Source: an uncultured Erysipelotrichaceae bacterium
GTDB lineage: Bacteria > Bacillota_I > Bacilli_A > Erysipelotrichales > Erysipelotrichaceae
Length of the DNA: 32,000 nucleotides
NCBI GenBank assembly: GCA_942493105.1
Contig: OW818668.1
Location: 1,140,001-1,172,000, forward strand
Direction: 5' to 3'
The notes under the pieces were generated by a model. That model saw only the letters and a program-made list of their open reading frames with translations. It did not search any database and was not told the DNA's origin. The translations under genes and the position numbers were made by a program. Positions 2,133 to 28,551 of the stretch are shown here, piece by piece (position 1 is the first letter of the stretch; each line of letters begins with the position of its first letter).

Positions 2133-2462
2133 CACTCTGAACAAACACATTTATAATGACTGAAATTTGGTGAAAACATTAACCCTAAAAGAATCTCATG
2201 GGGTTTGCTTACTCGAGTTTGCTAATCCCCGGAAAATATAAGCAATAAGTATTTCCATCATAAATAATTTGTATCTCTAATTTTTTGTGTGATCAATTCA
2301 ACTATCAATTTTAAGCTAAAATCTAGATGAGATGAGAATGCATATGAGTTATCCCGTGTATAATATGTTTGACAGTTATATCTAGATTAGAATGATGCTT
2401 TAGGAGATTAAAAATCAGAATTTATATCAAGATATAAGTTGATGATAAAAAAGGAGAATAAA

Positions 2463-3548
2463 ATGAGCTCGCTTCTAAGGATTAGTAATGATCAAACGAA
2501 CACTTTAGCTGAGAAAGCATTTAAAATGCAATTCGATCTTGACCAAGAAATGGCAAACACTTATTCAGAACGTCAAAGAAGATTGATGTATGAAGACATT
2601 CTTTATAACTTGAGCTATTTGGAAATTGCTGTAAAATTTGATGATGAAAAAATATTCATCGAATACACAAGATGGTTATATAAACTTCTGTGCAATTTAT
2701 CAAAAAATAGCACTGATCCTCGTGAACAAACACATCGTCGACTCAAAGAGCATTATCAAATCCTTGAAAAAATATCAGAGGATATTGAACCTTTAGAATT
2801 ATCACAAAGAAGAACACATATGATAACTAAAGGAATAGAAGCACTGGATCAAGAGCTAAATCAAGAACAAGATTTACTGTATCAAAACAGTGATCAATAT
2901 CAAGAAATAAGAAAAGAATATCTTAATTATCTGATTAAGAGTGACACTCGTGCAGCCATCAATTTAGTCAGAACTTTATCGAAATCAGACATATCGATTG
3001 ATGATATCTTTCAAAAAATACTTCAGGAAGTCATGATTGAAGTAGGTGATTTGTGGCATAGAAATGAAATATCAGTGGATAAAGAACATTATTGTACTTC
3101 AACCACACAAACAGCTCTTTCACAATTTTATTCTGTTATTTTTGAGCAACCAAGAAATGGATGTAAAATTCTGACTTGTTGTGTTGGAAGTGAACTTCAC
3201 GAAATGGGCATCAGAATGCTATCGGATCTATTTGAATATCATGGTTGGGATAGTATTTACCTTGGGGCTGCTGTTCCTAAAGATGCCATATTAAAATCGA
3301 TCAGTGAAAATAATCCAGATTTTATTGGACTATCTGTAACCATGCCCCAACACCTTGAATTATGTCAAGATATCGTTTTAGGTATCAAAGAAAAATTCCC
3401 ACATCTCAAAATCGCTGTTGGTGGTCAGGCTTTTAGTTCTACCCATGAGTTGTGGAAAAAATGGGGTGTTGATATTTCTACTCAAAATGCCTCTCAACTT
3501 ATCGAATGGGCTGAAAAGAACATCGTCCTTAATAAGGGAAGACAATGA
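2463..3548 (+). CDS. stand-alone cobalamin (B12)-binding protein, CarH-type sensor module without a DNA-binding domain
   Basis: The preferred start is ATG 2463, with SD AGGAG at 2452-2456 and a 6-nt spacer; the track start at 2439 is a TTG. Residue numbers follow the 369-aa track ORF. W206-x9-E216-H217 lies in VGDLWHRNEISVDKEHY (nt 3054-3089). E252-L-H254-E-M-G257 (nt 3192-3209) is followed by x41 to S299-V-T and x26 to G328-G329. This is the helical B12-binding_2 cap plus the Rossmann B12-binding domain. The N-terminal 155 aa or so is helical and I do not recognise it. Confidence 0.8.
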   Translation: MSSLLRISNDQTNTLAEKAFKMQFDLDQEMANTYSERQRRLMYEDILYNLSYLEIAVKFDDEKIFIEYTRWLYKLLCNLSKNSTDPREQTHRRLKEHYQILEKISEDIEPLELSQRRTHMITKGIEALDQELNQEQDLLYQNSDQYQEIRKEYLNYLIKSDTRAAINLVRTLSKSDISIDDIFQKILQEVMIEVGDLWHRNEISVDKEHYCTSTTQTALSQFYSVIFEQPRNGCKILTCCVGSELHEMGIRMLSDLFEYHGWDSIYLGAAVPKDAILKSISENNPDFIGLSVTMPQHLELCQDIVLGIKEKFPHLKIAVGGQAFSSTHELWKKWGVDISTQNASQLIEWAEKNIVLNKGRQ

Positions 3549-4585
3549 AAACATTTTTAGTTTTGGTAAATCTTGAGGGAACCATTATTGAAATCATGTG
3601 GTGTGATCCCGTTTCATTAATTGATAAAAAAATAGGTAATATCAGAGAAATTTTTGAAAGACAAGTTCATGAGTCAGTCATGAGAAGTATATTTGAATGT
3701 TCAAACGATTCAAAGCTGTTGGTTCACCTTGAACATCAGCCTTTATATGTGTCTCAAATTTCGCTGGACCTATATGGAATCAAGTCAAATAATGGGGTTT
3801 ACATTTTTGCACTTCAAGATGACTTTTGTCATGATTCTATTGAAAAAGAGCAGTTACATAGGCTTATATCTCACTTTATGTTTTTACAACAGACAGTCGA
3901 TCATAAACTCGGCTTTCATAATCCAGAATCATCTCGATTTCAGTTTGAAGAAATACAACTGCTCAATAATGAATTGGTTAACACCAAACGTAAGCTCGAG
4001 AAATCAAATGCTCAACTCAATGTATTAAACAAAGAGCTCAACAATCGCTTAGTCAAAGATCCACTTACGGGACTAGTCAGTCGATATCAATATCGATCAG
4101 AGATTGAATATCAAATCAGTCAACATCAAGATAAACTTGGAGTATTCATGTTTATAGACATGGATGATTTTAAAAAGATCAATGACACCTATGGCCATCA
4201 AATTGGGGATGATTATTTAATCGAATTTGCGAATCGATTAAAAAATATGCCTCTTCCCAATTCTGTAAAGCTCAGAATCGCTGGAGATGAGTTTGGGGTC
4301 TTTATCTATGGATTGAATTCGGTAGAAAACTCTGACTTGGAATCATATTGGGAGCTTATAAAACACTATATCATCGATCAACCGTTAGTGATTGATCATA
4401 ACTCCTTAGTATTCTCATTGAGTTGTGGTATGGCTATCTATGGTCAAGATACTGATGAAATTTATGAGATCATAGAGTATGCTGATTTTGCGATGTATCA
4501 TGCTAAAAAAACAGGAAAAAATAGATATGCGAAATTTGACTTGAAAGAATACGAAAACCTAAAGTCGAAGAAATCAAATAAGTGA
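3545..4585 (+). CDS. diguanylate cyclase-type protein (PAS-like N-domain, coiled coil, GGDEF domain with AGDEF motif)
   Basis: The ATG overlaps the upstream stop (ATGA at 3545-3548). GGDEF-domain blocks are DPLTGLVSRYQY, FIDMDDFKKINDTYGHQIGDDYL, RIAGDEFGVFI and YADFAMYHAKKTGKNRY. The heptad-like segment EEIQLLNNELVNTKRKLEKSNAQLNVLNKELNN precedes the domain. Confidence 0.9.
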   Translation: MKTFLVLVNLEGTIIEIMWCDPVSLIDKKIGNIREIFERQVHESVMRSIFECSNDSKLLVHLEHQPLYVSQISLDLYGIKSNNGVYIFALQDDFCHDSIEKEQLHRLISHFMFLQQTVDHKLGFHNPESSRFQFEEIQLLNNELVNTKRKLEKSNAQLNVLNKELNNRLVKDPLTGLVSRYQYRSEIEYQISQHQDKLGVFMFIDMDDFKKINDTYGHQIGDDYLIEFANRLKNMPLPNSVKLRIAGDEFGVFIYGLNSVENSDLESYWELIKHYIIDQPLVIDHNSLVFSLSCGMAIYGQDTDEIYEIIEYADFAMYHAKKTGKNRYAKFDLKEYENLKSKKSNK

Positions 4586-4680: not shown

Positions 4681-4724
4681 AAACGATGAATTCTGTGTTT
4701 AACCAAGTTCATCGTTTTTATTTA
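4681..4724 (+). terminator. rho-independent terminator after the B12/GGDEF pair
   Basis: AAACGATGAA (4681-4690) pairs with TTCATCGTTT (4708-4717), followed by a T-rich tail. Confidence 0.6.
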
Positions 4725-4799
4725 TTAAGCGTATAATTAAAATAGACAGACAATAATGATCATAATGGTTTGGGAACTTGTCTGTGAAAGAGGCGCGAC

Positions 4800-6275
4800 A
4801 TGGGATTCTTTAAACTCAACATTGAGAAGATGGCTAAGAATAAAGATATCAAAGGCTTAGCCAAAGCATTAATGGACAGAAGAGATTTAGATACTCGTAA
4901 TGAAGCAGCACAGGCATTAGAAGTGATGAAAGATATAGGAAAAATTGCAGACAGTCAATTTGTGGAAATGTTGATTAAAGTAAGATGCGATTCTTTGCGA
5001 CTCTTACCAAAGGTGGATCCAAAACTTCAATCAAAATTAAAAAATTCTGATACGAATGCTAGTTTCGTTGCCAATAAATTATTGCACCATTGTGGAGATG
5101 CAGCCATAGAACCACTGGTTAACGCAATTACAGGCAATCTAGAAAACTTGGACTATAAACAAAAAATGGAGATCAGAATCTTAGCAGGATATATAATTCA
5201 TAACAAAGAAGATAAACTACCCCCTACGATGATTGAACGACTCTTATCATCACTGAACTCTCCAGATGAAACAGTCGTAAGAAGTTCAGCTTTTGCTTTA
5301 GCTAGAGTCAAAAAAGAGCATGTAACAGATGCATTGATAGGGTTGTTGCATAATCCAGCGACTTTACATTTCGGCGAAGTTGCATGGGCACTTCAAGAAA
5401 CTCAAGATCCGCGTGCCATTGATCCATTGATCAGTGCTATTCAACATGGAGCGACTGCACGTGAATTCTCAAGAGCTTTGGCTTCCTTTGGAGATCCTAA
5501 AGTTGTAGAACCTTTACTGAATATTTTGAAATCTTACATTATGAGAGATGACAATATTGATCAACCATCTGCCACCATACATGCTTTATCTCAATTGAAA
5601 GATAAACGGGTTATTGAACCCTTTATTGCATTTCTTTCACATCAATCTAATTATGAAAAAGGTAGCGAATCTACGCGTTCTTCTTTGGCAGGAGCATTAG
5701 GTGATGTTGGTGATGAGCGTGTTGTGTTGGTCTTGGTTAGAACACTGAATACGGACCCAAGTGATACTGTTCGGTACTACGCTGCTAAGGCACTTGGTGA
5801 CCTAGCTGAACGTGGTCAACTTGATTCTATGATAGAAATCGCTCGCACAGCCCTACAAGCCTCTTCTGGTGTTGGATCTGAAAGTGTTAGGATAGTGTCA
5901 CTACAATCATTAACCAAATTCCCGAAAAAAGTGGAAATCAAACCAACTGGCGTTGAGGTCACAAACACGATAAATCAATCTGCCCAATTAGAGGAACAAT
6001 TATCCGATATCATCAATGATTATGAAGAGTTTGCGATGATTGAAGAAATCGCAAAACTATTGGTTGATCTTAATCGAAAATCCAACCAACAATACAACGT
6101 TGATCAAAGGGCGTATGATAGTACACTTAAATCCATTAAACACATTGGCACAAGACTGCATCAAGAGGGCAAAGAGCAACTGATGATTAAAGTGCTTACT
6201 CAAGCTGGTCAATATGGATGTAATGTCAGATTTATCGAAAGAGAATGGAATGGAATTGGTTCTTGGAGAGGATAA
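4800..6275 (+). CDS. HEAT / PBS-lyase-like repeat protein with an unassigned C-terminal domain
   Basis: 491 aa, with SD AAGAGG 7 nt upstream. Repeat units recur: DPRAIDPLISAI, GDPKVVEPLLNIL, KDKRVIEPFIAFL, GDERVVLVLVRTL, VRYYAAKALGDL. The last 130 aa or so (..RFIEREWNGIGSWRG) are not repeat-like and I do not recognise them. Confidence 0.75.
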   Translation: MGFFKLNIEKMAKNKDIKGLAKALMDRRDLDTRNEAAQALEVMKDIGKIADSQFVEMLIKVRCDSLRLLPKVDPKLQSKLKNSDTNASFVANKLLHHCGDAAIEPLVNAITGNLENLDYKQKMEIRILAGYIIHNKEDKLPPTMIERLLSSLNSPDETVVRSSAFALARVKKEHVTDALIGLLHNPATLHFGEVAWALQETQDPRAIDPLISAIQHGATAREFSRALASFGDPKVVEPLLNILKSYIMRDDNIDQPSATIHALSQLKDKRVIEPFIAFLSHQSNYEKGSESTRSSLAGALGDVGDERVVLVLVRTLNTDPSDTVRYYAAKALGDLAERGQLDSMIEIARTALQASSGVGSESVRIVSLQSLTKFPKKVEIKPTGVEVTNTINQSAQLEEQLSDIINDYEEFAMIEEIAKLLVDLNRKSNQQYNVDQRAYDSTLKSIKHIGTRLHQEGKEQLMIKVLTQAGQYGCNVRFIEREWNGIGSWRG

Positions 6276-6351
6276 ACTTTTGTTGTATTAATCCAATGGT
6301 GTAATGGTTGATTGGATAGATAACATAAAATCACCCAGTAAGGAGTTCACA

Positions 6352-7110
6352 ATGTATGAATTTCTAAAAAGAATTAACGCGACAGGATCAAACCAAAATG
6401 AAGCTTTAGATCTATTGAAACAACAAGTCCCAAAAGACCATGTACTTGTGGTTTGGTATTCAACAACAGGTAAAGGTTTTGGGTCAATAAAAGAGAAAGA
6501 TAAAACAGAAGAATTGGCTTTTCAATTGGCTGAAAGCAAATTGCCTAAAAATGCCAGGGATATTGTTAAAACAGTCATACAAAAAGGAACTCAACGTAGC
6601 ATAGAAATCAGATCATGGTTGTCGTTAGGTGATGTGCTTAAAGAAGCTGTTTTGAAGATTCATACCAATGAATTCATCAAAGACGGAAAGTTGATCGAAG
6701 CACCAAAATCAGGTTTATTTGGAGTAGGTGCTAAACAAGGTCTATATCAAGTTGATATCGCATCCTATGTTTCAGTATCGATCACTTATAATTCACCAAT
6801 TGAACTTGTTGGTTATTATGGAGAAACATCTGCAAATCAACTTATCAAGTCGATGATGGCTTGGTATCGAAGAGAAGCTGGACTAAAAGGTTACATGTTT
6901 AGGACTGATTTGATTTGTGATGACTGTAATCAGCCAGTTAAGCAGAACATTTATTTGCGACCCGGACGAATAAGTTGTGAGAACTGTACTCAAAGGTTAC
7001 TGGGGACAGCGGATTGGGAAAGTGCACTCAAGGATATGAATGCTTATTTTGGACCTAGTGTACCCCAAGACATTATTGATCTAGTCAATGAATTGAATCT
7101 GAGCCATTAA
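6352..7110 (+). CDS. hypothetical protein with a C-terminal CxxC...CxxC zinc-ribbon
   Basis: The preferred start is ATG 6352 (MYEFLKRINATG), with SD AAGGAG at 6340-6345. The track start at 6304 has no SD. The C-terminus has CDDCNQPV-x12-CENCTQRL. I recognise no family. Confidence 0.7.
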   Translation: MYEFLKRINATGSNQNEALDLLKQQVPKDHVLVVWYSTTGKGFGSIKEKDKTEELAFQLAESKLPKNARDIVKTVIQKGTQRSIEIRSWLSLGDVLKEAVLKIHTNEFIKDGKLIEAPKSGLFGVGAKQGLYQVDIASYVSVSITYNSPIELVGYYGETSANQLIKSMMAWYRREAGLKGYMFRTDLICDDCNQPVKQNIYLRPGRISCENCTQRLLGTADWESALKDMNAYFGPSVPQDIIDLVNELNLSH

Positions 7111-7162
7111 TCGTCGCAATCTATAATAATTTTCGAAAATTGATTTAAGAATTCTCAATTAG

Positions 7163-7185
7163 ACCCTAAACCTAGGGTTTTTAAA
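7163..7185 (+). terminator. short hairpin terminator after the Zn-ribbon gene
   Basis: ACCCTA-aacc-TAGGGT followed by TTTTT. The stem is only 6 bp. Confidence 0.45.
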
Positions 7186-7190
7186 TATAA

Positions 7191-7241
7191 TGACAAGTTT
7201 ACTTGACATAATCAGATGCTTGTTGTAAAGTTAACTTGTCA
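7191..7241 (+). promoter_or_regulatory. sigmaA-type promoter bracketed by operator-like inverted repeats (probable autoregulation by the XRE protein)
   Basis: -35 TTGACA (7203-7208), a 17-nt spacer, then -10 TAAAGT (7226-7231). TGACAAGTT (7191-7199) is the perfect reverse complement of AACTTGTCA (7233-7241). A third half-site, ACTTGACA (7201-7208), overlaps the -35. Confidence 0.5.
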
Positions 7242-7253
7242 AATGGAGGTTAA

Positions 7254-7457
7254 ATGAAAAACAATCTTGAGAAGTTGCGAAGACAATTAGGAATAAGTCA
7301 GGAAGAATTAGCTAATACATTGATGGTTTCCAGACAAACCATCAGTTCGCTTGAAAAGGGTCAATATAATCCATCGATTCTTTTAGCGTTTAAAATTTCA
7401 AAGTTCTTTAGTCAGTCGATTGAAGAAATATTCATCTATGAGGAGGATGAGAAATGA
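7254..7457 (+). CDS. XRE/Cro-CI family helix-turn-helix transcriptional regulator (67 aa)
   Basis: The HTH_XRE signature LRRQLGISQEELANTLMVSRQTISSLEKGQYNPS is present. SD GGAGG lies upstream, and the stop overlaps the next ATG (ATGA at 7454-7457). Confidence 0.9.
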   Translation: MKNNLEKLRRQLGISQEELANTLMVSRQTISSLEKGQYNPSILLAFKISKFFSQSIEEIFIYEEDEK

Positions 7458-7867
7458 ACACCATCAACATTAGGAAATATCGCTTATATTTGTTTTTAGG
7501 TATTATGCTAACTCTATGCGGTTTGATAGTAATCCAATTGACAAGTCCCAATCAAGGTTATGAAGGTTTCATTATAGGATTTGGATCTTCAATAAGTGCA
7601 GTGTTTCTTATACGCTTGCGCAAAAATATTAAACATCCCGAAGAAGTTAGGCAAGACTTAATTGAAGCTGAAGATGAACGAAATAGGATGGTCAATGGAG
7701 TCGCAGGCTATGTGAATGTAAAAACCACTTCAATCATCCTGAGTATTCAAAGTGTAATTTTCTACTTTATGAAACTCCCGATTCCGTTAGTTATATCATT
7801 ACTTGCGTTGGTTATTCATTACACGAGTTTTACTTTATTAAGAAATTACTACGACAGAAGGATGTAA
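7454..7867 (+). CDS. small integral membrane protein, co-transcribed partner of the XRE regulator (DUF2178-like arrangement)
   Basis: 137 aa with 4 hydrophobic segments, translationally coupled to the XRE gene. The family assignment comes only from the common XRE-plus-membrane-protein gene pairing. Confidence 0.6.
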   Translation: MNTINIRKYRLYLFLGIMLTLCGLIVIQLTSPNQGYEGFIIGFGSSISAVFLIRLRKNIKHPEEVRQDLIEAEDERNRMVNGVAGYVNVKTTSIILSIQSVIFYFMKLPIPLVISLLALVIHYTSFTLLRNYYDRRM

Positions 7868-8008
7868 TATGCAAATTGAAAATTCCACACCAGAACGAAC
7901 ATTCATCTTAATGGACATTTGTCTTGAAAAGATCGATAATTTAAATATAAATACCTATGAGCACAATTAACTCAATGAGGTAGATTTTCTTGAAAGGAAA
8001 GCATTGAA

Positions 8009-8602
8009 ATGACGAATCATCGTATGAATCCTAAGGTCAGTGCGTTTATGAATCAAGCCACTAAATGGCAAGCTGAATTTAAAAAGTTAAGAGAAATCTT
8101 ACTTGAAAGTCAGCTTACAGAAGAACTGAAATGGGGCCAACCTTGTTATACTTTAGATGGATCAAACATAGTCTTGATGCATGGATTTAAAGATTATTGT
8201 GCCTTGTTATTTATGAAAGGTGCTTTACTTAAAGATCCCAAGAGTATCCTTATTCAACAAACCCTCAATGTTCAAGCAGCTCGTCAGATTAGATTTAAAA
8301 ATCTTTCTGATATTGAAGTGCTCGAAACTGATATTAAAGACACTGTCAATGAAGCGATTGATGTTGAAAAGTCTGGTTTAGAAGTATCCTTTAAAAAGCA
8401 TACAGAGTTTGCTATTCCAGATGAACTTCAACAGAAATTCTATTCAAATCCGGATTTAAAGGCAGCTTTTGAAGCGTTGACACCAGGAAGACAAAGAGCT
8501 TATTTACTTTACTTTGCTCAACCTAAACACGCTAAAACAAGAGAAGATAGAATTGAGAAACAGTTTCAACGGATTTTAGATGGAAAAGGACTCAATGATT
8601 AG
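8009..8602 (+). CDS. YdeI/OmpD-associated (DUF1801 + OmdA-like) family protein
   Basis: 197 aa. The N-terminal part has KWGQPCYTLDGSNIVLMHGFKDYCALLF (DUF1801-like). The C-terminus has FEALTPGRQRAYLLYFAQPKHAKTREDRIEK (YdeI/OmdA-like). Confidence 0.6.
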   Translation: MTNHRMNPKVSAFMNQATKWQAEFKKLREILLESQLTEELKWGQPCYTLDGSNIVLMHGFKDYCALLFMKGALLKDPKSILIQQTLNVQAARQIRFKNLSDIEVLETDIKDTVNEAIDVEKSGLEVSFKKHTEFAIPDELQQKFYSNPDLKAAFEALTPGRQRAYLLYFAQPKHAKTREDRIEKQFQRILDGKGLND

Positions 8603-8628
8603 CGAAGTAAATTACTTAATAACCCATT

Positions 8629-9794: not shown

Positions 9795-11423
9795 ATGAGA
9801 ACTTCGGATTATGATGTCATTGTCGTAGGGGCTGGGATTGCAGGGTTGACGGCTTCTGCCTACTTAAGTAAAGAAAGACACCGTGTGCTGTTGATTGAAA
9901 AAGAACCAGAATGCGGAGGTCTTTTAGGTGCCTTTAAACTTGATGGTCATACCTTAGATAAGGGTGCTCGAGGAATCATCGATTCTGGGATCGTGTTTTC
10001 TATGATGAAGCAATTAGGAGTAGATATAGAATTTCTTCCAAATCCGATTAAGATGTCTGTAGGATCAAAATCAATCCTTTTAAAAGATGAATCTAGTATT
10101 GATGAATACGGAGCCTTATTAAAAGAATATTATCCTAGTGAAAAGCAGGATATTGATGAAATTTTAGTGGATGTTAAGAGAGTCATGAAATACATGGATG
10201 TTTTGTATGGAATAGACAATCCACTATTTATGTCTAAACCTTATGATATGAAATATTTGGGTAAGGTATTACTGCCATGGATGGGTAAGTTTATCATCAA
10301 TATGAATAAAGCCATGAAGATGTTTGAACCTGTGAATGATTATTTAAATAGGAAAACAAAAAATAAAGCATTGATTCATATTATAGCTCAACATTTCTTT
10401 ACCGATACCCCGACTTTCTTTGCCTTGTCTTATTTTACCCTTTACTTGCAATATCATTATCCCAAGGGATCGACTCAGGTCATTGTAGACAAACTGAGTG
10501 AACTGATCAAAAAACAAGATTGTACCATTCTCAATAATGCTCAAGTGATGTCCATTGATTCAGATAAAAAAGAAATTGTGACCCAAGATGGCCAGGTTTT
10601 TACTTATCAGCAATTGATTTGGACAGCGGATACCAATGCTTTCTATAAAGTGCTTCAAACTGAATCCATTCAAAGTTTGCCTGTTAAACAAAAAGTTATT
10701 GAAAATACGGCCAAATTTAAAACATTTAAAGGGGCAGATTCAATCTTGACTCTGGTTATTTTAGTGAATCAACCGATAGAAACTTATAAAGACATCAGTG
10801 GTCCACACTGTTTTTACACCAAGAAACTGGAAGGGTTATCCAAGATATCATTATCTGAAATTCAGGATGAAAACAAGGCGTTCATTACCGATAAAAAGGC
10901 CTTATTTGATTGGCTTAAAAAATACATTGAGTATAATACTTTTGAAATATCAATTCCTGCTTTACGTGATGCCTCCTTATCCCCAAAAGGCGAAACTGGA
11001 CTCATTGTATCAACTTTGTTTGATTATGATTTAACCAAACTTATTGCCGATCTAGGTTACTATGAAGAATTCAAACAGTTTGTAACTGAAGCAATTATTG
11101 ACTTCTTTAATGATGAATATTGGCCAAATTTCAGAAACACAATCAAGAAAACGCAGGTTGCGACACCACTCACGATTCAATCCAGAACCTTCAGTACAGA
11201 TGGGTCTGTTACTGGTTGGTCATTTGGAAATCACCCATTCCCGGTTGAGTATAAATTCCTTAAAGTCAATAAATCTGTATTGACCCCAATCCCATCAATC
11301 AAACAAGCTGGTCAATGGACATTTAATCCAGCAGGGGTTCCTGTAGCCATCCTAACAGGGAAATTAGCATCAGATGTCGTGGATAAAGAGCTAAAGAAAA
11401 TCAAGAAAAGGCAAGGAAAATAG
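9795..11423 (+). CDS. NAD(P)/FAD-dependent oxidoreductase of the CrtI / phytoene-desaturase-like superfamily
   Basis: 542 aa with SD AAGGGGG. The N-terminal dinucleotide fold is DVIVVGAGIAGLTASAYLSKERHRVLLIEKEPECGGL. The C-terminal block GQWTFNPAGVPVAILTGKLAS is typical of CrtI/RetSat-like flavoproteins. Confidence 0.75.
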   Translation: MRTSDYDVIVVGAGIAGLTASAYLSKERHRVLLIEKEPECGGLLGAFKLDGHTLDKGARGIIDSGIVFSMMKQLGVDIEFLPNPIKMSVGSKSILLKDESSIDEYGALLKEYYPSEKQDIDEILVDVKRVMKYMDVLYGIDNPLFMSKPYDMKYLGKVLLPWMGKFIINMNKAMKMFEPVNDYLNRKTKNKALIHIIAQHFFTDTPTFFALSYFTLYLQYHYPKGSTQVIVDKLSELIKKQDCTILNNAQVMSIDSDKKEIVTQDGQVFTYQQLIWTADTNAFYKVLQTESIQSLPVKQKVIENTAKFKTFKGADSILTLVILVNQPIETYKDISGPHCFYTKKLEGLSKISLSEIQDENKAFITDKKALFDWLKKYIEYNTFEISIPALRDASLSPKGETGLIVSTLFDYDLTKLIADLGYYEEFKQFVTEAIIDFFNDEYWPNFRNTIKKTQVATPLTIQSRTFSTDGSVTGWSFGNHPFPVEYKFLKVNKSVLTPIPSIKQAGQWTFNPAGVPVAILTGKLASDVVDKELKKIKKRQGK

Positions 11424-11425
11424 TT

Positions 11426-11947
11426 ATGAATGATCACGATGAAAGCATCGCACTAGAATCTGAATTGTCGATCCAGCGTGATCAACAAAATGAAGCGGTC
11501 ACACCTCCTGTTTTAGAAGAACTGACCACAACTTCTGTTCAAAATTTATGGTCTAAAACATACAATACACAAGGAAAACCGGATTGGTCGCATATTTTTC
11601 CGTATTATCATCCCAACATTATCTTTCAGGATTCCATTCAAAGAATAGAAGGTATCGATCAATTTGTTGAAATGTGCAATCGTTTAACCAAACGTTGTGA
11701 ATCTTTACATATGGATCTTTCCAACATCGTAAAACAAGGGCATGTGATCAGTATGGAATGGGTCATGACGATGTCGTTTAAGAAATCTCCAACAACACCG
11801 CTTTATGGCTGTACCAGATTGACTTTAGGTGAGGATGGCCGGATCATTGAACAAAGAGATTATTATGATCTGTGGGGCGATATCTTTAATAATATTCCTT
11901 ACTTTAAGAAGTCATATCGCAAATTCTTATCGAAGTATTTTGGTTAA
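11426..11947 (+). CDS. NTF2/SnoaL-like fold protein
   Basis: 173 aa, starting 2 nt after the upstream stop. The core is YHPNIIFQDSIQRIEGIDQFVEMCNRL ... TRLTLGEDGRIIEQRDYYDLWGDIF, which fits SnoaL-like domains. An acidic extension of about 40 aa sits at the N-terminus. Confidence 0.65.
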   Translation: MNDHDESIALESELSIQRDQQNEAVTPPVLEELTTTSVQNLWSKTYNTQGKPDWSHIFPYYHPNIIFQDSIQRIEGIDQFVEMCNRLTKRCESLHMDLSNIVKQGHVISMEWVMTMSFKKSPTTPLYGCTRLTLGEDGRIIEQRDYYDLWGDIFNNIPYFKKSYRKFLSKYFG

Positions 11948-11956
11948 GGGGACCTT

Positions 11957-12868
11957 ATGAAACTTCCAGATGAATTGATGTTTCTGCAAAATAAAAATGC
12001 TCAACAAAAAGAAACACAGGCTTTGATGAAAGGTAAAGTATGTGTCATCACAGGGGCAACATCGGGTGTAGGACTTGAAGCTGCCAAAGCATTGGCACAA
12101 GGTCAGGCAACACTGATCATTGTGGCTCGTAATGCTTATCGAGCTTATGAAGTACAGAAAGAACTAATCGATGCGTATCAGGTTTCGGTGGAAGTGGTCA
12201 TCGCAGATTTTAGTAATCTTGAGGATGTCCGTAAAGCAGCTCTTCAGATCATTTCACTAACCTCACATATCGATGTGTTGATCAATTGTGCAGGTCTACA
12301 TTCAACCAAGGCAACCTATACCAGTGAAGGTCATGAGACTGTTTTTTGCGTCAATCACTTGGCTTCTTTTTTATTGACAGAACTTTTACTTCCAACCCTT
12401 AAGAAAAGTGCTCCTTCGCGTATCCTACAAATCAATTCAGAAGGACATCGTTTTAATGGCTTAGATATTCATGATCTTGATTGGAAGAAACGTCATTATA
12501 CGGGATTAAGAGGCTATGGTGCTTCAAAAACTGCACAGTTGATGTGTGTATGGGAACTCCATGATCAGCTGACTCAAACAGGTGTAACGATCAATGCGAT
12601 GCATCCTGGGGATGTTAAAACAAACATAGGAAGCAATAATGGTTGGCTTTATCGTTTATTCTCAAAAATCATGATCAAACCGATGTTAAGAGATCCAATC
12701 ATCTCAGGTAAAGCCATTTATTATTTGGTAGCAGAGCCTGCTTTACAAGATATCAGCGGTAAGTTTTATCATTTGACCCTAGAAGAGATCCCTGCCAAAC
12801 ATGCCCTTGATCGTAAACTTGGAAAAGAAGTATATGAGATCAGTATGAAATTGACAGGACTTAAATAG
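11957..12868 (+). CDS. short-chain dehydrogenase/reductase (classical SDR, retinol-dehydrogenase-like subgroup)
   Basis: The cofactor motif is TGATSGVGLEAAKAL (TGxxxGxG), the catalytic motif is YGASKTAQ (YxxxK), and NCAG is present. SD AAGGGGA lies upstream. Confidence 0.85.
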   Translation: MKLPDELMFLQNKNAQQKETQALMKGKVCVITGATSGVGLEAAKALAQGQATLIIVARNAYRAYEVQKELIDAYQVSVEVVIADFSNLEDVRKAALQIISLTSHIDVLINCAGLHSTKATYTSEGHETVFCVNHLASFLLTELLLPTLKKSAPSRILQINSEGHRFNGLDIHDLDWKKRHYTGLRGYGASKTAQLMCVWELHDQLTQTGVTINAMHPGDVKTNIGSNNGWLYRLFSKIMIKPMLRDPIISGKAIYYLVAEPALQDISGKFYHLTLEEIPAKHALDRKLGKEVYEISMKLTGLK

Positions 12869-12912
12869 TTCACTTAAGATTAACTTAACTTTGAGTTTGT
12901 TAAGATGATGGT

Positions 12913-13599
12913 ATGAAAAAAATAGGTACATTATTAATACTTGCACTCATATTAGCTGGATGTGCAAGCCCCAAAGACAAGAAAGAATGGACTTTTAATT
13001 TTAATAACGACCAAGAAGGTTTTGAGGTCATCTTTGCGGATTATCATGATGATGGTAATGATCTACAAACTTATGAGATGACTCATGGACATGCACTCAT
13101 TCCTGTTGGAACTTCAACTTCTCAAGGTCTTTTTATCAGCGCTCAAAATAGAAGCGATGATTTATTTGTGGGCTATTTTAAAAAGTTAAGCGGACTAAAA
13201 AGTTCATTGACCTATAAAGTAAAAATCTCATTTAAATTGGCAACCCAAGAGGATTCGGGATCGATTGGGGTGGGTGGATCTCCAGCAGAAAGTGTTTACG
13301 TTAAGGCTGGTGCAGTCAATCAAAAACCAGAAATCAAACTTGATGATCAGCAAGTCTTCCGTCTCAACATCGATAAAGGCAATCAGTCAGAAGGATCACT
13401 CACTGTTCCTGTAGTAACCAATATGGCAAAACCTGAAGGAAGTGCATCAGGCTTTGTCTTTAAAGAACTCAGCGTTGAAGTTGAAATAAGCACCTCGTCC
13501 GATGGCTCACTTTACATACTTATCGGAACAGATTCGGCCTTTGAAGGTTTAACTCGTTATTATCTGGATGACATCAAAGTCGTCGCAACTCAAAAATAA
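12913..13599 (+). CDS. lipoprotein of unknown function
   Basis: The signal peptide carries the lipobox LILAGC|ASPKD. The mature part looks beta-rich. I recognise no family. Confidence 0.75.
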   Translation: MKKIGTLLILALILAGCASPKDKKEWTFNFNNDQEGFEVIFADYHDDGNDLQTYEMTHGHALIPVGTSTSQGLFISAQNRSDDLFVGYFKKLSGLKSSLTYKVKISFKLATQEDSGSIGVGGSPAESVYVKAGAVNQKPEIKLDDQQVFRLNIDKGNQSEGSLTVPVVTNMAKPEGSASGFVFKELSVEVEISTSSDGSLYILIGTDSAFEGLTRYYLDDIKVVATQK

Positions 13600-16636: not shown

Positions 16637-18322
16637 ATGTTTGAAAATATATTTAACAACATTATCTTGAATATCGCCATATTGTTGATCATGGGCAATG
16701 TGATCCCTAGGATCCATTTTTTTCGTGAAACTCTTTTTAGATATGAAAGATCTTGGAAAGATATCATTATCTTATCAATGGTATTTGGTGGTTTGGGGAT
16801 CTTATCTACTTATATGGGCATCAACATCAATGGAGCCATCGTTAACACACGTGTCATCGGAGTGATCACAGGTGGTCTTTTAGGAGGTCCCTGGGTTGGT
16901 CTTTTTTCTGGTCTGATTGCGGGAGGACATCGTTTTTTATATGATTTAGGCGGCTTTACGGCCTTGTCTTGTGGTTTATCGACCTTGGTTGAAGGGATAT
17001 TAGGCGGTCTGATGTATAGCCGTATCCGCACATCTAAAAATAAATATGCTTGGATCTATGGGACAACTTTTGTGGCTGAGATCTTACAGATGGTTATCAT
17101 CTTACTGATTGCCAGACCTTTTGATGCGGCAGTAGAATTGGTCAGGATCATTGCCTTACCGATGATCTTCCTAAATGCCTTGGGCTCTGTTATTTTTATT
17201 CAGGCTATTTTCTCGGTTCAACGCAGTATCGATGCCCAATCTGCCAAGCATTTAAAATTGGCCTTTGATATCGCCAAAGTAAGCTCTATATATACGCAAA
17301 AAGGATTAGAATCTGAAAAGGACATGCAAGAGGTTGCCCGTATCGTTCGCATCGAATCAGAAAGTGATTTCGTCATGATCACGACTTTAGATAAAGTCAT
17401 TGCCCAAGACGGAAATAACGAGATCAGCCAAGAAATCATAGGATCTTGGAGACCTTGGGTCAAAGAAACATCATTTAATGGGACCAGTAAACAGCTTTCT
17501 AAGAAAGAAATCGCAGAAGTTCATTTAAAACATGCGAATAAACGTATTTTTGTGACTCCGATTTTAAGAAACGAAGTAGTTGTAGGTTCAATCATCATCT
17601 GTGATAAGAATTATCAAGAAAGTTCAAAAACGACCCTAGAATTTACAGAAGGTTTATCTCGTTTGCTTTCTACCCAACTTGAATTATCTGAAATCGAAAA
17701 TCAACGTAAACTGGTTCAAAAAGCTGAACTTAAAGCACTTCATTCTCAAATCAATCCTCATTTTTTATTCAATGCGCTCAATACGATAGCGGCTACCAGC
17801 CGAGAAAATCCCGAAAGAGCCAGACAGTTGATCATTGCCTTAGGTTCTTATTTCAGAAATACCTTAAGTTCTCAAAAAGAACTGATCGATATTCAAAGTG
17901 AAGTTGAACATGTCTTATCGTATATCGAAATCGAAAAGGCGCGTTTTGAGGATCGTTTGGATGTTCAGATCCTTTGTGACCCTAAATTAAAATGGGAAGT
18001 GCCTAACTTCATCATTCAGCCTTTGATTGAAAACAGCATCAAACATGGGATGAAAAAAGACATCCTGCATCTTAAGTTGACCATCCTAAAAGTCAAAGAT
18101 AAATTGAACATTGAAGTCTGGGATGATGGGGGAGGCATGGATGCCTCTATCATTGAAAGGCTTTATTCTAATACGTCAGATCGTGAAAAAATCGGTTTAG
18201 CCAATATTCATAATCGACTTAAAAGCATTTATCCTAATCATAAAGGTTTAATCATCGAAACCAAACCAAATGAATCTACCTTGATCAAGATGCGTATTCC
18301 ATCTTCAGAGGTGAAACCATGA
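16637..18322 (+). CDS. LytS/YehU(BtsS)-type sensor histidine kinase (5TM-LYT, GAF-like, His_kinase, HATPase)
   Basis: 561 aa. The N-terminal membrane domain has GG-rich helices (GVITGGLLGGPWVGLFSGLIAGGHRF). The H-box is LKALHSQINPHFLFNALNTI. The ATPase N and G boxes are PNFIIQPLIENSIKHG and VWDDGGGM. Confidence 0.9.
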   Translation: MFENIFNNIILNIAILLIMGNVIPRIHFFRETLFRYERSWKDIIILSMVFGGLGILSTYMGININGAIVNTRVIGVITGGLLGGPWVGLFSGLIAGGHRFLYDLGGFTALSCGLSTLVEGILGGLMYSRIRTSKNKYAWIYGTTFVAEILQMVIILLIARPFDAAVELVRIIALPMIFLNALGSVIFIQAIFSVQRSIDAQSAKHLKLAFDIAKVSSIYTQKGLESEKDMQEVARIVRIESESDFVMITTLDKVIAQDGNNEISQEIIGSWRPWVKETSFNGTSKQLSKKEIAEVHLKHANKRIFVTPILRNEVVVGSIIICDKNYQESSKTTLEFTEGLSRLLSTQLELSEIENQRKLVQKAELKALHSQINPHFLFNALNTIAATSRENPERARQLIIALGSYFRNTLSSQKELIDIQSEVEHVLSYIEIEKARFEDRLDVQILCDPKLKWEVPNFIIQPLIENSIKHGMKKDILHLKLTILKVKDKLNIEVWDDGGGMDASIIERLYSNTSDREKIGLANIHNRLKSIYPNHKGLIIETKPNESTLIKMRIPSSEVKP

Positions 18323-19032
18323 AGCTTTTGATCGTTGATGATGAGCGGATCTCACGCAATGAACTCAAACATCAACTTTTAGAATTGAATTCATCAAATA
18401 CGATATTTGAAGCTGATTCATGCGAAAATGCCTTGACCTTATTAAAAACCATTTCCTTTTCAGGAGCTTTCTTTGATATTGAACTCTTGGATGGCAAAGG
18501 AACAGATCTTGCTCAACAAGCCTTAGTTCTTCAACCAGATCTCAACTTTGTCTTCTCAACGGCCTATGATCAATTTGCCTTGGAGGCATTTAAGTTAAAT
18601 GCCTTGGATTATATATTAAAGCCCTTTAATCCCATTGATATCCAACGTGCATACAATCGTTTAGTCAAAAGGGAAAGACTGATCGCCCCAGCAGCCTGTG
18701 CAACCGAAAAAATCACGGTATGGTCCAATGAAAAGGCGCATGTGTTAAGTTACAGTGACATCATCTACATTACATCTTCCAACAAGCAGATTCTTTTGGT
18801 TACAAAAAATCAAACCTACTCAATCAAGCAATCACTGGATCAGCTTGAGCAACGATTAGCATCTTGCGGATTTTCAAGAGTTCAACGAAGTTTTATTGTC
18901 AATCTGAATCGGGTCACAGAAATCTTGCCTTGGTTCAATAATGCCTATGCCTTAAAACTGCAAGGTCTAGATACCATCATCCCAATCAGTCGTCAAAAGA
19001 CCCAGATCTTACGCGACTATTTTGATTTCTAG
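18319..19032 (+). CDS. LytTR-family response regulator
   Basis: It overlaps the kinase stop (ATGA at 18319-18322). The REC domain has MKLLIVDDE and FFDIELLDG. The C-terminal LytTR domain has FSRVQRSFIVNLNRVTEILPWFNNAYALKL. Confidence 0.9.
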   Translation: MKLLIVDDERISRNELKHQLLELNSSNTIFEADSCENALTLLKTISFSGAFFDIELLDGKGTDLAQQALVLQPDLNFVFSTAYDQFALEAFKLNALDYILKPFNPIDIQRAYNRLVKRERLIAPAACATEKITVWSNEKAHVLSYSDIIYITSSNKQILLVTKNQTYSIKQSLDQLEQRLASCGFSRVQRSFIVNLNRVTEILPWFNNAYALKLQGLDTIIPISRQKTQILRDYFDF

Positions 19033-19048
19033 CCATCAATTTATACAT

Positions 19049-19112
19049 TTCAACCTTATTTTTCAACAATTCAACCCAAGTGTAAGCGATTGCAGGGTTG
19101 TTTTTTTATAAT
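19049..19112 (+). promoter_or_regulatory. candidate LytTR-dependent promoter of the CstA-family gene
   Basis: TTCAACC lies at 19049-19055 and again at 19070-19076, exactly 21 bp apart. TTCAACA lies at 19062-19068. A perfect -10 TATAAT is at 19107-19112 with no good -35. Confidence 0.4.
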
Positions 19113-19133
19113 GATGTGGAAAGGGAGGTTACT

Positions 19134-20561
19134 ATGTTTACATTTCTAATCGCTTTAGTCGTCTTGATCTTAGGTTATGTTTTCTATGGCGCTTTCATTG
19201 AAAAGATTTTCAAACCAGATGATCGTATTACGCCAGCTGTATCCGTCAATGATGGGGTCGATTATGTTCCTATGAAACAAAAATGGAATATCTTCTTGAT
19301 TCAATTATTGAACATTGCAGGTTTAGGTCCGATCTATGGAGCTATCTTGGGGGCTTTGTTTGGTCCTGCTGTCTATATTTGGATCGTATTTGGTTGTATC
19401 TTTGCCGGGGCAGTTCATGATTACTTGTCTGGCATGATTTCCATGCGTCACAATGGAGCCAATATTTCTGAATTGGTTGGCATCTATTTGGGCAACAATA
19501 TGAAATGGATCATGAGAATATTCTCAGTCATTCTGTTGGTTCTAGTAGGAACTGTATTTATGAGCGGACCAGCTGCCTTGTTGGCTAAGTTGACTCCGGA
19601 ATCCTTAAATTTAACATTCTGGTTGTATGCAATTTTAATTTATTATTTCTTAGCTACGATCTTGCCTTTCGATAAGATCATTGGCCGTTTATACCCAGTC
19701 TTTGGTTTCGTTTTGATTTTCATGGCTGTAGGCGTTGGTGCTTTATTGCTCATCAACAATGGCTCAAATCCTTTGCCTGAATTGACTTCCATTCCTTTAG
19801 CTAATGTTAAAGGTCAGGCTTTATGGCCAATCATGTTTATTACTGTTGCTTGCGGAGCCATTTCTGGTTTCCATGCTACACAATCACCAATGGTTGCCCG
19901 CGTCATGATGAATGAACGCGATGGTCGCAAGATCTTCTATGGTGCCATGATTGCTGAAGGCGTTATCGCATTGGTATGGGCTGCTGCCGGGACAACGTTC
20001 TATCAGGGTCCTGCCGGTTTAAATGAAGCTTTGGCTACATTAGGCGGTCAAGGCGGCGTTGTATTCGATGTAACTAAATCATTGTTGGGCCCAGTTGGTG
20101 GCGTCTTGGCGATCTTAGGGGTCGTTGCAGCTCCAATCACTTCTGGGGATACAGCTTTCCGTGCTGCACGTTTAACTTTAGCGGATATCTTCAAACTGAA
20201 TCAGAAACCTTTAAAAAATCGCTTATTCATTGCTGTTCCGTTGTTGTTTGTCGGTTGGTATTTGACACAAGGTGTTGATTATCAAATCATCTGGCGCTAC
20301 TTCTCATGGGCCAATCAGACTTTAGCGATGATCGCATTATGGATGGGTGCAGCTTACTTGTATCAACATAAACTCAATCATTGGGTTGCCAGTATTCCTG
20401 CTACTTTTATGAGTGCTGTCAGCGTTACCTACATCCTACAAGCTGCTGAAGGCTTCAAATTAGCGACCAGCATTTCCTATCCAGTTGGACTAGTCACAGC
20501 TCTTTCATTCTTTGGGTTATTCTATCTGCTCATCTTAAAAAAAGCTAGAATTGCTGTATAA
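19134..20561 (+). CDS. cstA: CstA-family transporter (short form; BtsT/CstA-like putative pyruvate/peptide:H+ symporter)
   Basis: The preferred start is ATG 19134, with SD AGGGAGG at 19122-19128; the track start at 19098 is a TTG. The protein is 475 aa and polytopic. The block TVACGAISGFHATQSP resembles the conserved CstA ACGAxSGFH motif. Confidence 0.8.
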   Translation: MFTFLIALVVLILGYVFYGAFIEKIFKPDDRITPAVSVNDGVDYVPMKQKWNIFLIQLLNIAGLGPIYGAILGALFGPAVYIWIVFGCIFAGAVHDYLSGMISMRHNGANISELVGIYLGNNMKWIMRIFSVILLVLVGTVFMSGPAALLAKLTPESLNLTFWLYAILIYYFLATILPFDKIIGRLYPVFGFVLIFMAVGVGALLLINNGSNPLPELTSIPLANVKGQALWPIMFITVACGAISGFHATQSPMVARVMMNERDGRKIFYGAMIAEGVIALVWAAAGTTFYQGPAGLNEALATLGGQGGVVFDVTKSLLGPVGGVLAILGVVAAPITSGDTAFRAARLTLADIFKLNQKPLKNRLFIAVPLLFVGWYLTQGVDYQIIWRYFSWANQTLAMIALWMGAAYLYQHKLNHWVASIPATFMSAVSVTYILQAAEGFKLATSISYPVGLVTALSFFGLFYLLILKKARIAV

Positions 20562-24232: not shown

Positions 24233-24308
24233 GGCCCGTTGGAGAAATGGTTAACTCACATGCCCCTCACGCATGCATTCACGGGTTCAAACCCCGTACG
24301 GGTCACCA
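24233..24308 (+). tRNA. tRNA-Glu (anticodon CUC), 76 nt with encoded CCA
   Basis: A hand-folded cloverleaf supports the call. The acceptor stem is GGCCCGT/ACGGGTC (G2:U71). The D stem is GAG/CTC, with U8, A14, GG and A21 present. The anticodon stem is CATGC/GCATG. The loop CCCTCAC puts CTC at 24266-24268. The variable loop is CATTC. The T arm is ACGGG-TTCAAAC-CCCGT. The discriminator is A, followed by CCA. The 5' and 3' ends resemble Bacillus-type tRNA-Glu. Confidence 0.85.
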
Positions 24309-27075: not shown

Positions 27076-28551
27076 TCAATCAAATATGGTGAGATTTTCA
27101 AGTCCGAAGTCAGAGAATTTTGGACTAAATCCAAGGTATTGGTCGCTACCAATGGATGCAGAGTAAGCTTTAGAATTGATATAAAATCCTGTAGTATTCA
27201 CTCTGATCCTTAGGTTGTCATAAAGTTCCTCTACAGAGACATCACTTGGTATATAGCCAACATCGATTTCTTCTTGGATTTGTGCTTTAAGAGCACTTTC
27301 ATAATCAAAACCAGGTTTAAAATAATCTTTGATTCCGATTTCTTTTAAGTTTTTATCGTAACACTTGAATTCATCTTTATATTCAAATTTATCTTGAGAT
27401 GAAACTTCGAAATTTGAAGTGAGACAATAGGTTGAACCGGATTCATTCGCATATACTCCTGCATTTAGATAATCTATGTCATATTGATCTCCATAAACCA
27501 TCAAATCATGGATGATCAGGTCTCTCATTGAAGATAATTTTGTGACAAGGATTGGATTTAAATCTTTTGGATAAGACATTAGAATTCGATAATCTTTATT
27601 CTTTATGGATATGATTTCAAAATCTTGAATTCTTTTTGGATTATTCAGCAATAAAAACTGACGATCGATGATGGGTTGATTAAAGATTTCGTTAGGAGAG
27701 GTGAAACGAGCTGTGATCCCAATATGATCTATGAAATCAAAGTATGGAACAGTAATGGACACAGTCGTAAGACCGGTATCAAATTCTGGGGTCCGATAAT
27801 CAAAGAGTAAATGTAAGCCTTGGTCACTGATGAAGAAAGGCTGTGTGGCTTTGATGCCTTTAAAAGGCACGACTTGGGTCATTTCTCCATAAAACAACTC
27901 AAATCCACTATGGACAGGTTCATCAGTACTGTTAATGTCCATTAATGAAGTGTGAAGTGAATTGTTGATGAGTTTTTGTAGATCAGCATCATTGGTAAAG
28001 ACATCAGCCAGGTTGAGTTGTTCACCATGAATCAACTCAAAGGTCATCCCATCCATCACATTGACATAGACAAAAGTTTCATCAGGATTCTTGATTGCAA
28101 TATAAGCATTCATACTTAAGCCTAAAACATAATTCGCATTATAGGAAACGCTCACATAAACATTCATGGCTTCAATTTTAGCATTTGTTTTGATTCTTTG
28201 ACGTATTCCTCGAAACGCAGGAAGAGACTCAATATCCTGATAAGCCATCATTTCATTGAATCTTTTTAATATCGCAGCGTTGATTTTAGATTCAACGGCT
28301 TCATCTTTTAAACCATCGATCACGACTCTGTTTGTATACATGGTTTCTGATTCATAGTCGTTGACATACTCGATCTCAATCGGATTATTCCAAACATAAG
28401 GAATCGCAACAGGGGAGTTGACCACTGATCCAATGGGTTTCGCAAACTCTATGACTTCTTCTTCAGGATCTTCTTTGGGTTCTTCTTTATTAATTGTGCA
28501 TGAACTTAATAAAAGACAAGTGAACAGTAAAAGTTTACTTAACTTTGACAT
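27076..28551 (-). CDS. large lipoprotein of unknown function (possibly DUF4163/DUF3298-like)
   Basis: The lipobox is LLLSSC|TINKE. Segments such as VIDGLKDEAVESKINAAILKRFNEMM and FFISDQGLHLLFDYRTPEFDTGLTTVSITVPY recall DUF4163/DUF3298 domains, but that domain call is weak. The start overlaps the upstream gene by 17 nt. Confidence 0.75.
   Translation of the reverse strand: MSKLSKLLLFTCLLLSSCTINKEEPKEDPEEEVIEFAKPIGSVVNSPVAIPYVWNNPIEIEYVNDYESETMYTNRVVIDGLKDEAVESKINAAILKRFNEMMAYQDIESLPAFRGIRQRIKTNAKIEAMNVYVSVSYNANYVLGLSMNAYIAIKNPDETFVYVNVMDGMTFELIHGEQLNLADVFTNDADLQKLINNSLHTSLMDINSTDEPVHSGFELFYGEMTQVVPFKGIKATQPFFISDQGLHLLFDYRTPEFDTGLTTVSITVPYFDFIDHIGITARFTSPNEIFNQPIIDRQFLLLNNPKRIQDFEIISIKNKDYRILMSYPKDLNPILVTKLSSMRDLIIHDLMVYGDQYDIDYLNAGVYANESGSTYCLTSNFEVSSQDKFEYKDEFKCYDKNLKEIGIKDYFKPGFDYESALKAQIQEEIDVGYIPSDVSVEELYDNLRIRVNTTGFYINSKAYSASIGSDQYLGFSPKFSDFGLENLTIFD

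Follow-up and report, generated by a model that had tools for sequence, protein, structure and literature searches.

Knowledge of photoreception by vitamin B12 proteins other than CarH goes back only a few years, and to our knowledge a single cyclase-coupled photocobilin has been studied so far, a fusion protein. Here we describe a two-gene locus at positions 2463 to 4585 of a 32,000 bp window, the whole stretch of DNA that was analysed (positions 1,140,001 to 1,172,000 of contig OW818668.1, assembly GCA_942493105.1), from an uncultured Erysipelotrichaceae bacterium. A gene for a stand-alone photocobilin-type sensor of 361 aa, with a photoglobin domain followed by a C-terminal B12 module (gene A, 2463..3548), is translationally coupled to a gene for a predicted diguanylate cyclase of 346 aa, with a PAS-like domain, a signalling helix and a GGDEF domain (gene B, 3545..4585). 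Both genes, and all features of the operon given below, lie on the forward strand. We read the locus as a natural split version of the known fusion: the sensor is one protein and the enzyme another, and the two would be produced in a constant ratio.

The closest described systems are the photocobilins, which bind adenosylcobalamin (AdoCbl) in a base-off/His-on form with the adenosyl group held by a Trp and a Glu-His motif (PMC10979010). In AbDPcob from an Acidimicrobiaceae bacterium (8J2Y), a B12 domain with W-x-EH and E/DxH motifs and a photoglobin control a GGDEF cyclase: AdoCbl lowers cyclase activity in the dark relative to the apo-protein, light raises kcat more than 10-fold, and the isolated photocobilin domains added in trans alter both the activity and the oligomeric state of the isolated cyclase (PMC10979010). 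SasPcob from the actinobacterial aerobe Saccharothrix syringae (8J2W/8J2X) is, like gene A, a stand-alone B12 and photoglobin protein without an output domain; it binds biliverdin beside the corrin, which extends its response to red light, and its predicted partners are STAS, SpoIIE and PP2C proteins (PMC10979010). Photocobilins with the B12 domain at either end had already been noted in the same study. An earlier bioinformatic survey without experiments (Schneider et al. 2021, PMC8717448) describes loci in which a photoglobin precedes or follows the domains B12-binding_2 and B12-binding, as in gene A, within operons that carry GGDEF, EAL, SpoIIE and histidine kinase genes, which resemble the outputs reported below; its alignment includes Proteocatella sphenisci, which carries the pair (L052 in our numbering of loci). 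The kind of system, its chromophore logic and its cyclase output are thus already published, and the locus extends known biology. An initial annotation of this stretch had stated that no characterised example of such an output was known, a claim that is out of date because the light-activated output of AbDPcob, which also responds to its sensor in trans, was demonstrated in 2024 (PMC10979010).

The B12 module of gene A (residue numbers are those of the 361-aa protein unless stated) consists of a B12-binding_2 four-helix cap (aa 150-220, 2910..3122; PF02607, 3.3e-14) and a B12-binding Rossmann domain (aa 235-338, 3165..3476; PF02310, 5e-21). The cap carries the adenosyl-pocket motif W198-x9-E208-H209 at 3054..3089 (TGG 3054-3056 to CAT 3087-3089), which reads GDLWHRNEISVDKEH and is preceded by G195 to give a GxxW element, and the Rossmann domain carries E244-L-H246-E-M-G249 (3192..3209), in which H246 is the predicted lower axial cobalt ligand. 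The initial annotation had listed these motifs in the numbering of a 369-aa open reading frame (ORF), as W206/E216/H217, E252-x-H254-xx-G257 (ELHEMG), S299-V-T (LSVTMP) and G328-G329 (AVGGQ), and all four were found with the spacings and at the nucleotides that it gave. A sequence search returned 643 full-length homologues of gene A, and in an alignment of 43 homologues (45-84% identity) W198, E208, H209, E244, H246, G249, G320 and G321 were invariant, which argues that the motifs are under selection and did not arise by chance. W198, E208 and H209 align with W61, E71 and H72 of SasPcob, and H246 with its lower-ligand His (His108 in the numbering of PMC10979010). Three of the four sequence elements used by SignatureFinder (PMC11796333) are also present exactly, namely GxxW (G195-W198), EH (208-209) and GxxxP (G268-P272).

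Database comparisons place this module with light-responsive B12 domains, in agreement with the original assignment. The best sequence match of gene A in the PDB was SasPcob (8J2W/8J2X, 1.6e-19), followed by AbPcob (8J2Y, 3.2e-16) and the B12 domain of CtMerR (8JBS, 5.9e-14), a MerR protein responsive to light that comes from the SignatureFinder work (PMC11796333), with a Desulfitobacterium cobalamin protein, MetH and CarH at about 1e-6 to 1e-9; a profile search of the PDB agreed that photocobilins are closest (6e-26). The AlphaFold2 model of gene A has a predicted local distance difference test (pLDDT) score of 90.3 and a predicted template modelling score of 0.87, values that indicate one confidently predicted inter-domain arrangement. 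Foldseek matched the B12 half of the model to CtMerR, the photocobilins (about 200 columns at about 23% identity for SasPcob) and CarH. The globin half was left unaligned because the domain order of gene A is permuted relative to the solved photocobilins; the photoglobin was therefore assigned by sequence profiles. CarH/LitR (5C8D) has the same four-helix cap and Rossmann domain, W-x9-E-H motif and His lower ligand as gene A (Foldseek probability 1.0), but it carries a MerR helix-turn-helix (HTH) domain, whereas gene A has an additional photoglobin and would act on a partner enzyme instead of DNA. Its sequence similarity to gene A is weak (8.8e-7, or 2e-3 with the profile), and the NCBIfam CarH equivalog scored 48.8 bits against a cut-off of 400, over aa 145-323 only. 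Neither the Pfam nor the NCBIfam scan detected an HTH domain in gene A, as had been noted at the outset, and we rejected a CarH/LitR-type transcription factor on the grounds of the missing HTH domain and a CarH score far below the cut-off.

The N-terminal part of gene A had been described as an unrecognised helical region of about 155 aa, and the protein as a bare CarH-type module. Sequence profiles instead identify the first 135 or so residues (aa 1-135, 2463..2867) as a photoglobin, that is, a phycobiliprotein-like globin domain. HMMER reported a weak second stretch of similarity between residues 37-77 of gene A and residues 257-297 of SasPcob, within the C-terminal globin domain of the latter, and a profile of the N-terminal 145 aa alone had the AbPcob globin domain as its sole credible PDB match (E 0.03). 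In a set of 1.84 billion representative proteins, the N-domain profile found 284 relatives, which among the matches listed are either the N-termini of proteins of about 350 aa or stand-alone proteins of 120-145 aa. When broadened with these relatives, the profile matched SasPcob (4.2e-9) and AbPcob (8.6e-7) in the PDB, and then allophycocyanin and phycocyanin subunits from 2e-6. Matches to the SasPcob and AbPcob globins, followed by allophycocyanins and phycocyanins, are the basis of the assignment, and the same relationship to phycobiliproteins originally defined the photoglobin family (PMC8717448).

Two residues that contact biliverdin in SasPcob, Asp270 and Trp296 (PMC10979010), are in register with D45 and W71 of gene A; at least 90% of the sequences have the Asp, and all of them have the Trp. 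AbPcob has a His at the position of D45, and this His lowers its affinity for biliverdin (PMC10979010). Neither SasPcob nor gene A has a Cys for covalent bilin attachment. Because the photoglobin keeps the bilin-contacting Asp and Trp, we regard gene A as a candidate two-chromophore sensor of the photocobilin type, with the globin N-terminal to the B12 module, the opposite of the domain order in SasPcob, where the B12 domain is N-terminal.

Gene B is predicted from its sequence to encode a cytoplasmic diguanylate cyclase. Its AlphaFold2 model (pLDDT 88) comprises a PAS-like fold, a long helix and a GGDEF domain, which corresponds to the PAS-like domain, coiled coil and GGDEF domain recognised in the initial annotation; PF00990 matched with 116.9 bits (9.4e-34; cut-off 23.8 bits), and with PF02607 and PF02310 in gene A all three of the Pfam families anticipated there have been found. 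The PAS-like N-terminal domain (aa 1-122, 3545..3910), modelled as two beta-strands, helices and three further beta-strands, is poorly conserved and had no Pfam or NCBIfam match. It is followed by the linker or signalling helix (aa 127-170, 3923..4054), which is a candidate receiver surface, and by the catalytic domain (aa 171-327, 4055..4525) with the active-site motif A246-G-D-E-F250 (4280..4294), the family consensus of which is A/S-GDEF. A search gave 439 homologues of gene B, and in a family alignment the other catalytic positions, DxD...FKxxND, G247-D-E249 and K321/K325, are invariant. Gene B has no RxxD I-site five residues before the active-site motif, where it has LPNS and PA0575 has RDVD, and the family consensus also lacks RxxD. 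The proportion of columns conserved in at least 90% of the cyclase family is 19 of 44 in the linker, 56 of 157 in the GGDEF domain and 4 of 122 in the PAS-like domain, so that the linker helix is the most conserved segment of the partner, above even the catalytic domain. Foldseek aligned about 340-356 columns of the model with a PAS-GGDEF-EAL protein (5XGE), Dcsbis, a LOV-diguanylate cyclase (8C05) and the bacteriophytochrome-diguanylate cyclase IsPadC (5LLW). The last two share the layout of sensor, coiled coil and GGDEF domain, but their photosensor is fused and uses a bilin or a flavin, whereas no cofactor motif can be recognised in the PAS-like domain of gene B, and light would be sensed by a protein of its own.

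The pairing of the two genes, whose conservation the initial annotation had named as a check on its proposal, holds essentially without exception. When genomes were scanned, one for each species, 253 loci with relatives of gene A emerged; 80 of them were analysed, and 72 had enough downstream sequence to be informative. In all 72 the next downstream gene on the same strand encodes a protein with the linker helix of gene B. The partner is a GGDEF protein of 320-390 aa at about 70 of the 80 loci, and its GGDEF domain shares 45-64% identity with that of gene B. Sensor and partner genes most often overlap by 4 nt, and nearly all gaps are below 55 nt. The reverse look-ups gave the same picture: directly upstream of each of three gene B homologues, picked without reference to gene A, was a gene encoding a B12-binding_2/B12-binding protein of 357-369 aa. 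The closest relative of gene A (84% identity) is in an Erysipelotrichaceae metagenome-assembled genome, and the carriers among the 80 loci include Erysipelotrichaceae, many Clostridia, Christensenellaceae, Tissierellaceae, Sphaerochaeta and other spirochaetes, together with Fusobacteria, Synergistaceae, Izemoplasmatales/Acholeplasmataceae and Atribacterota. The pairing thereby spans Bacillota, Spirochaetota, Fusobacteriota, Synergistota, Mollicutes-like lineages and Atribacterota. According to the record titles, the carriers come from gut, rumen, digesters, oil-reservoir and groundwater samples, sediments, springs and mats.

ORF clustering of the 80 loci revealed no other widely conserved neighbour, save the partner and a small membrane protein. 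The latter is a multi-pass protein of roughly 180 aa (about 170-235 aa) encoded directly 3′ of the cyclase in 23 loci, about one third of the operons (for example L009:8106-8660, L010:8071-8607, L082:4039-4590, L083:3932-4504, and 19 others), and absent from the window. It had no Pfam or NCBIfam match; a role as a further part of the system, for instance as effector or anchor, is possible.

A minority of the loci carry a different output behind the same sensor. Pfam identified a GGDEF-EAL partner in four (L039, 7044-8819; L046; L069, 7034-8869; and L073), in two of which (L039 and L046, both from gut Clostridium) a truncated GGDEF match is joined to a strong EAL domain, and three further partners (L065, L072 and L077) are inferred to be of the GGDEF-EAL type from their size and GGDEF similarity. 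The partner is a SpoIIE phosphatase in L079 (7049-8317) and a hybrid histidine kinase in L075 (7029-8387), and in L028 a PAS histidine kinase (7074-8621) is inserted before the cyclase, giving two partners in series. A hidden Markov model of the PAS-like domain of gene B matched the L028 kinase (1.8e-30), the L079 phosphatase (8e-16) and the L069 and L073 proteins (about 1e-16). The linker helix is kept in all of the swapped partners and the PAS-like domain in most, the L075 kinase being without it. One sensor family thus pairs with many outputs that have the N-terminal helix in common, a pattern that would follow if this helix, with or without the PAS-like domain, were the element that takes up the sensor's signal.

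Taking homology and gene context together, we put the probability at about 0.6 that the locus encodes a split photocobilin-controlled diguanylate cyclase, with the product of gene A sensing in trans for that of gene B. In such a system the AdoCbl-loaded sensor would bind the helix and PAS region of gene B and fix the GGDEF dimer in one activity state. The Co-C bond would be lost on exposure to green light, or also to red light if a bilin is bound, and a changed cobalamin loading might act in the same way as loss of this bond. The sensor would then rearrange and the helix would pass the change on, altering the synthesis of cyclic di-GMP (c-di-GMP), while translational coupling would hold the two proteins in proportion. 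The docking, the sign of regulation, the chromophores actually bound and light as the natural signal are inferences.

Several observations weigh against this scheme. Most carriers are anaerobic and live in gut, rumen, digesters, sediments or deep groundwater, habitats in which light is scarce and O2-dependent biliverdin synthesis is unlikely, and the ORFs of the window include no haem oxygenase gene and no gene for cobalamin synthesis or transport (nor any PilZ gene). For these reasons a serious rival is that the same architecture and partner switch answer a chemical signal, with the availability or form of a corrinoid, and maybe an O2-independent linear tetrapyrrole, governing c-di-GMP. Such a role would accord with the lowering of AbDPcob cyclase activity, relative to the apo-protein, by AdoCbl binding alone (PMC10979010), and with the distal globin position, three residues before the Asp, where gene A has M42 and not Cys, Ser or Thr: this position is Cys in the CXQD motif reported for photoglobins (PMC8717448) and Thr in SasPcob, so that the globin motif of the gene A subfamily is M-x-E-D as against the published C-x-Q-D. 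We nonetheless think a purely chemical signal unlikely, since W-x9-E-H, the mark of light-responsive B12 domains, never varies, every one of the nearest relatives that have been characterised is a photoreceptor, and light may reach the sediments, springs and mats from which many carriers were sampled; light sensing and chemical sensing are in any case not mutually exclusive. A broader form of the idea, which we hold to be decidedly unlikely, makes the photoglobin-B12 protein primarily a two-ligand chemosensor for the form or availability of a corrinoid and an O2-independent linear tetrapyrrole, the latter of which could derive from host bile pigments or anaerobic haem-breakdown products, and makes sensor and helix a general plug-in pair whose helix has been attached to several outputs: cyclases and phosphodiesterases, but also histidine kinases and a SpoIIE phosphatase.

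Other points concern catalysis and the kind of B12 module. No member of the gene B family has the first Gly of GGDEF, Ala or Ser standing in its place, and the gut Clostridium partners pair a truncated GGDEF domain with a strong EAL domain, as might be expected if gene B were an inactive scaffold or a receptor for GTP or c-di-GMP that signals by protein-protein interaction. We consider this very unlikely, as the remaining catalytic positions are invariant, VCA0965 is an AGDEF enzyme with working c-di-GMP synthesis (PMC3974145), and the strong conservation of the GGDEF domain fits an enzyme under selection. As regards the B12 module, Ser stands at the Gly position of the SignatureFinder GxxH element in alignments with SasPcob and CtMerR (G242-S243-E-L-H246), and with the gene A family profile MetH B12 domains (about 1e-9) outrank CarH. 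The latter result would suit a methyltransferase-type corrinoid carrier of the MtaC/MtbC kind whose position next to a cyclase is incidental, as would the NCBIfam MtbC match (1.5e-12), almost equal to that of CarH (5.5e-13), and the Joint Genome Institute annotation of many homologues as 'methanogenic corrinoid protein MtbC1'. These family scores lie far below their cut-offs, however (MtbC, 47.5 bits against 350; TIGR02370, 42 against 215), no methyltransferase gene is conserved near the sensor in the 80 loci, and the invariant W-x9-E-H motif, the additional photoglobin domain and the pairing found in both directions all point elsewhere. A corrinoid carrier is accordingly extremely improbable, the scores and the gene context effectively refuting it.

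Relative to AbDPcob, the proposed split system has the same combination of a B12 domain and a photoglobin in control of a GGDEF cyclase, and a sensor that acts on the cyclase domain in trans has a precedent there. AbDPcob is, however, a single polypeptide in the order diguanylate cyclase, B12 domain, globin, whereas here two coupled proteins are made and the globin precedes the B12 module, and gene B differs from its cyclase in the PAS-like domain, the very conserved helix and the AGDEF motif. The proposed logic of the pair is also that of the AerR/PpaA-CrtJ/PpsR and AppA-PpsR systems, in which a B12 or B12-like protein without an output domain binds a PAS-containing partner. Those partners are transcription factors of purple-bacterial photosynthesis genes, and the systems have neither a photoglobin nor a c-di-GMP output. 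In a limited text search of the parts of the literature examined, we found no statement that the sensor is paired almost obligatorily, and with translational coupling, to a single partner family, of the linker helix conserved across swapped outputs, or of the M-x-E-D variant of the globin motif. The sensor family occurs in about 250 genomes of several phyla, with the helix reused for other outputs, and the pair offers a concrete system for asking how stand-alone photocobilins relay their signal. If the sensor does dock on the helix, the two would make a small, portable module through which green/red light or cobalamin could control c-di-GMP and other outputs. The distribution also raises the question of why anaerobes of gut, rumen and subsurface keep an apparent photoreceptor.

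The genes form a two-gene operon with its own terminator. As an ORF started at TTG, gene A spans 2439-3548 (369 aa), but the ATG at 2463 is likely to be the true start because an AGGAG ribosome-binding site, read from the sequence, lies at 2452..2456, 6 nt 5′ of this ATG, and because homologues begin MSLL or MSSLL; the residue numbers of the initial annotation are therefore the real ones plus 8. The stop codon of gene A overlaps the start codon of gene B in an ATGA at 3545..3548, as originally reported, which suggests translational coupling. The operon ends in an intrinsic terminator (4681..4726) with a 12-bp stem and a U-rich tail, also part of the first description and borne out by RNA folding, which gave the hairpin (4681-4717) a folding free energy of -14 kcal/mol (z = -3.9). 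A simple pattern scan for terminators had no match at the operon end because the loop is longer than 8 nt. Upstream of gene A, a consensus scan picked out a candidate sigma-70-type promoter, TTGACA-16-AATGAT (2369..2396, 10/12 matches); the assignment is weak, as promoter-like sites in the region are no more numerous than in shuffled sequences. Folding of the leader (2380-2475) was likewise no better than that of shuffles, base composition showed no anomaly over the operon, and an Rfam scan of the window detected no cobalamin or c-di-GMP riboswitch near the operon, a tRNA at 24233-24305 being its sole match.

Directly past the operon terminator, a forward-strand gene (4800-6275) encodes a 491-aa protein with PBS-lyase HEAT-like repeats (Pfam HEAT_PBS, 1.6e-19) that also matches the NCBIfam family of the phycocyanobilin lyase CpcE (2.6e-12; 47 bits against a cut-off of 330). 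The presence of a bilin-lyase-like scaffold beside a phycobiliprotein-like globin is suggestive, and we considered whether its product might attach a bilin to the photoglobin; synteny is limited to the closest relative (L001, 87% identity), the other loci have no such gene, and for this reason it was left out of the system. The following gene (6304-7110, forward strand, 268 aa) is syntenic with the HEAT-repeat gene in L001 and had no Pfam or NCBIfam match, which is also true of a 491-aa reverse-strand gene at 27076-28551. Near the start of the window, the match of a forward-strand ORF (36-716) to gamma-glutamyltranspeptidase is confined to the C-terminal half (positions 290-512 of the 512 in the profile); lying so close to the boundary, the gene probably continues upstream of the window or starts earlier.

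The other genes described here are also on the forward strand. At 7254-7867, a gene for a 67-aa XRE-type HTH protein overlaps by 4 nt one for a predicted membrane protein of 137 aa, a typical repressor-plus-membrane-protein pair. The region 9795-13599 begins with a gene weakly matched (71 bits; cut-offs 238-550) to oxidoreductases of the CrtI/CrtD family that bind flavin adenine dinucleotide; after it come genes for a SnoaL-like protein, a short-chain dehydrogenase and a 228-aa product without a family match. Together they could be a small lipid- or isoprenoid-modifying cluster. At 16637-20561, genes for a LytS-type histidine kinase (5TMR-LYT), a LytTR response regulator and a CstA carbon-starvation transporter stand in a row, in what looks like a pyruvate- or peptide-sensing unit similar to BtsSR/YpdAB.

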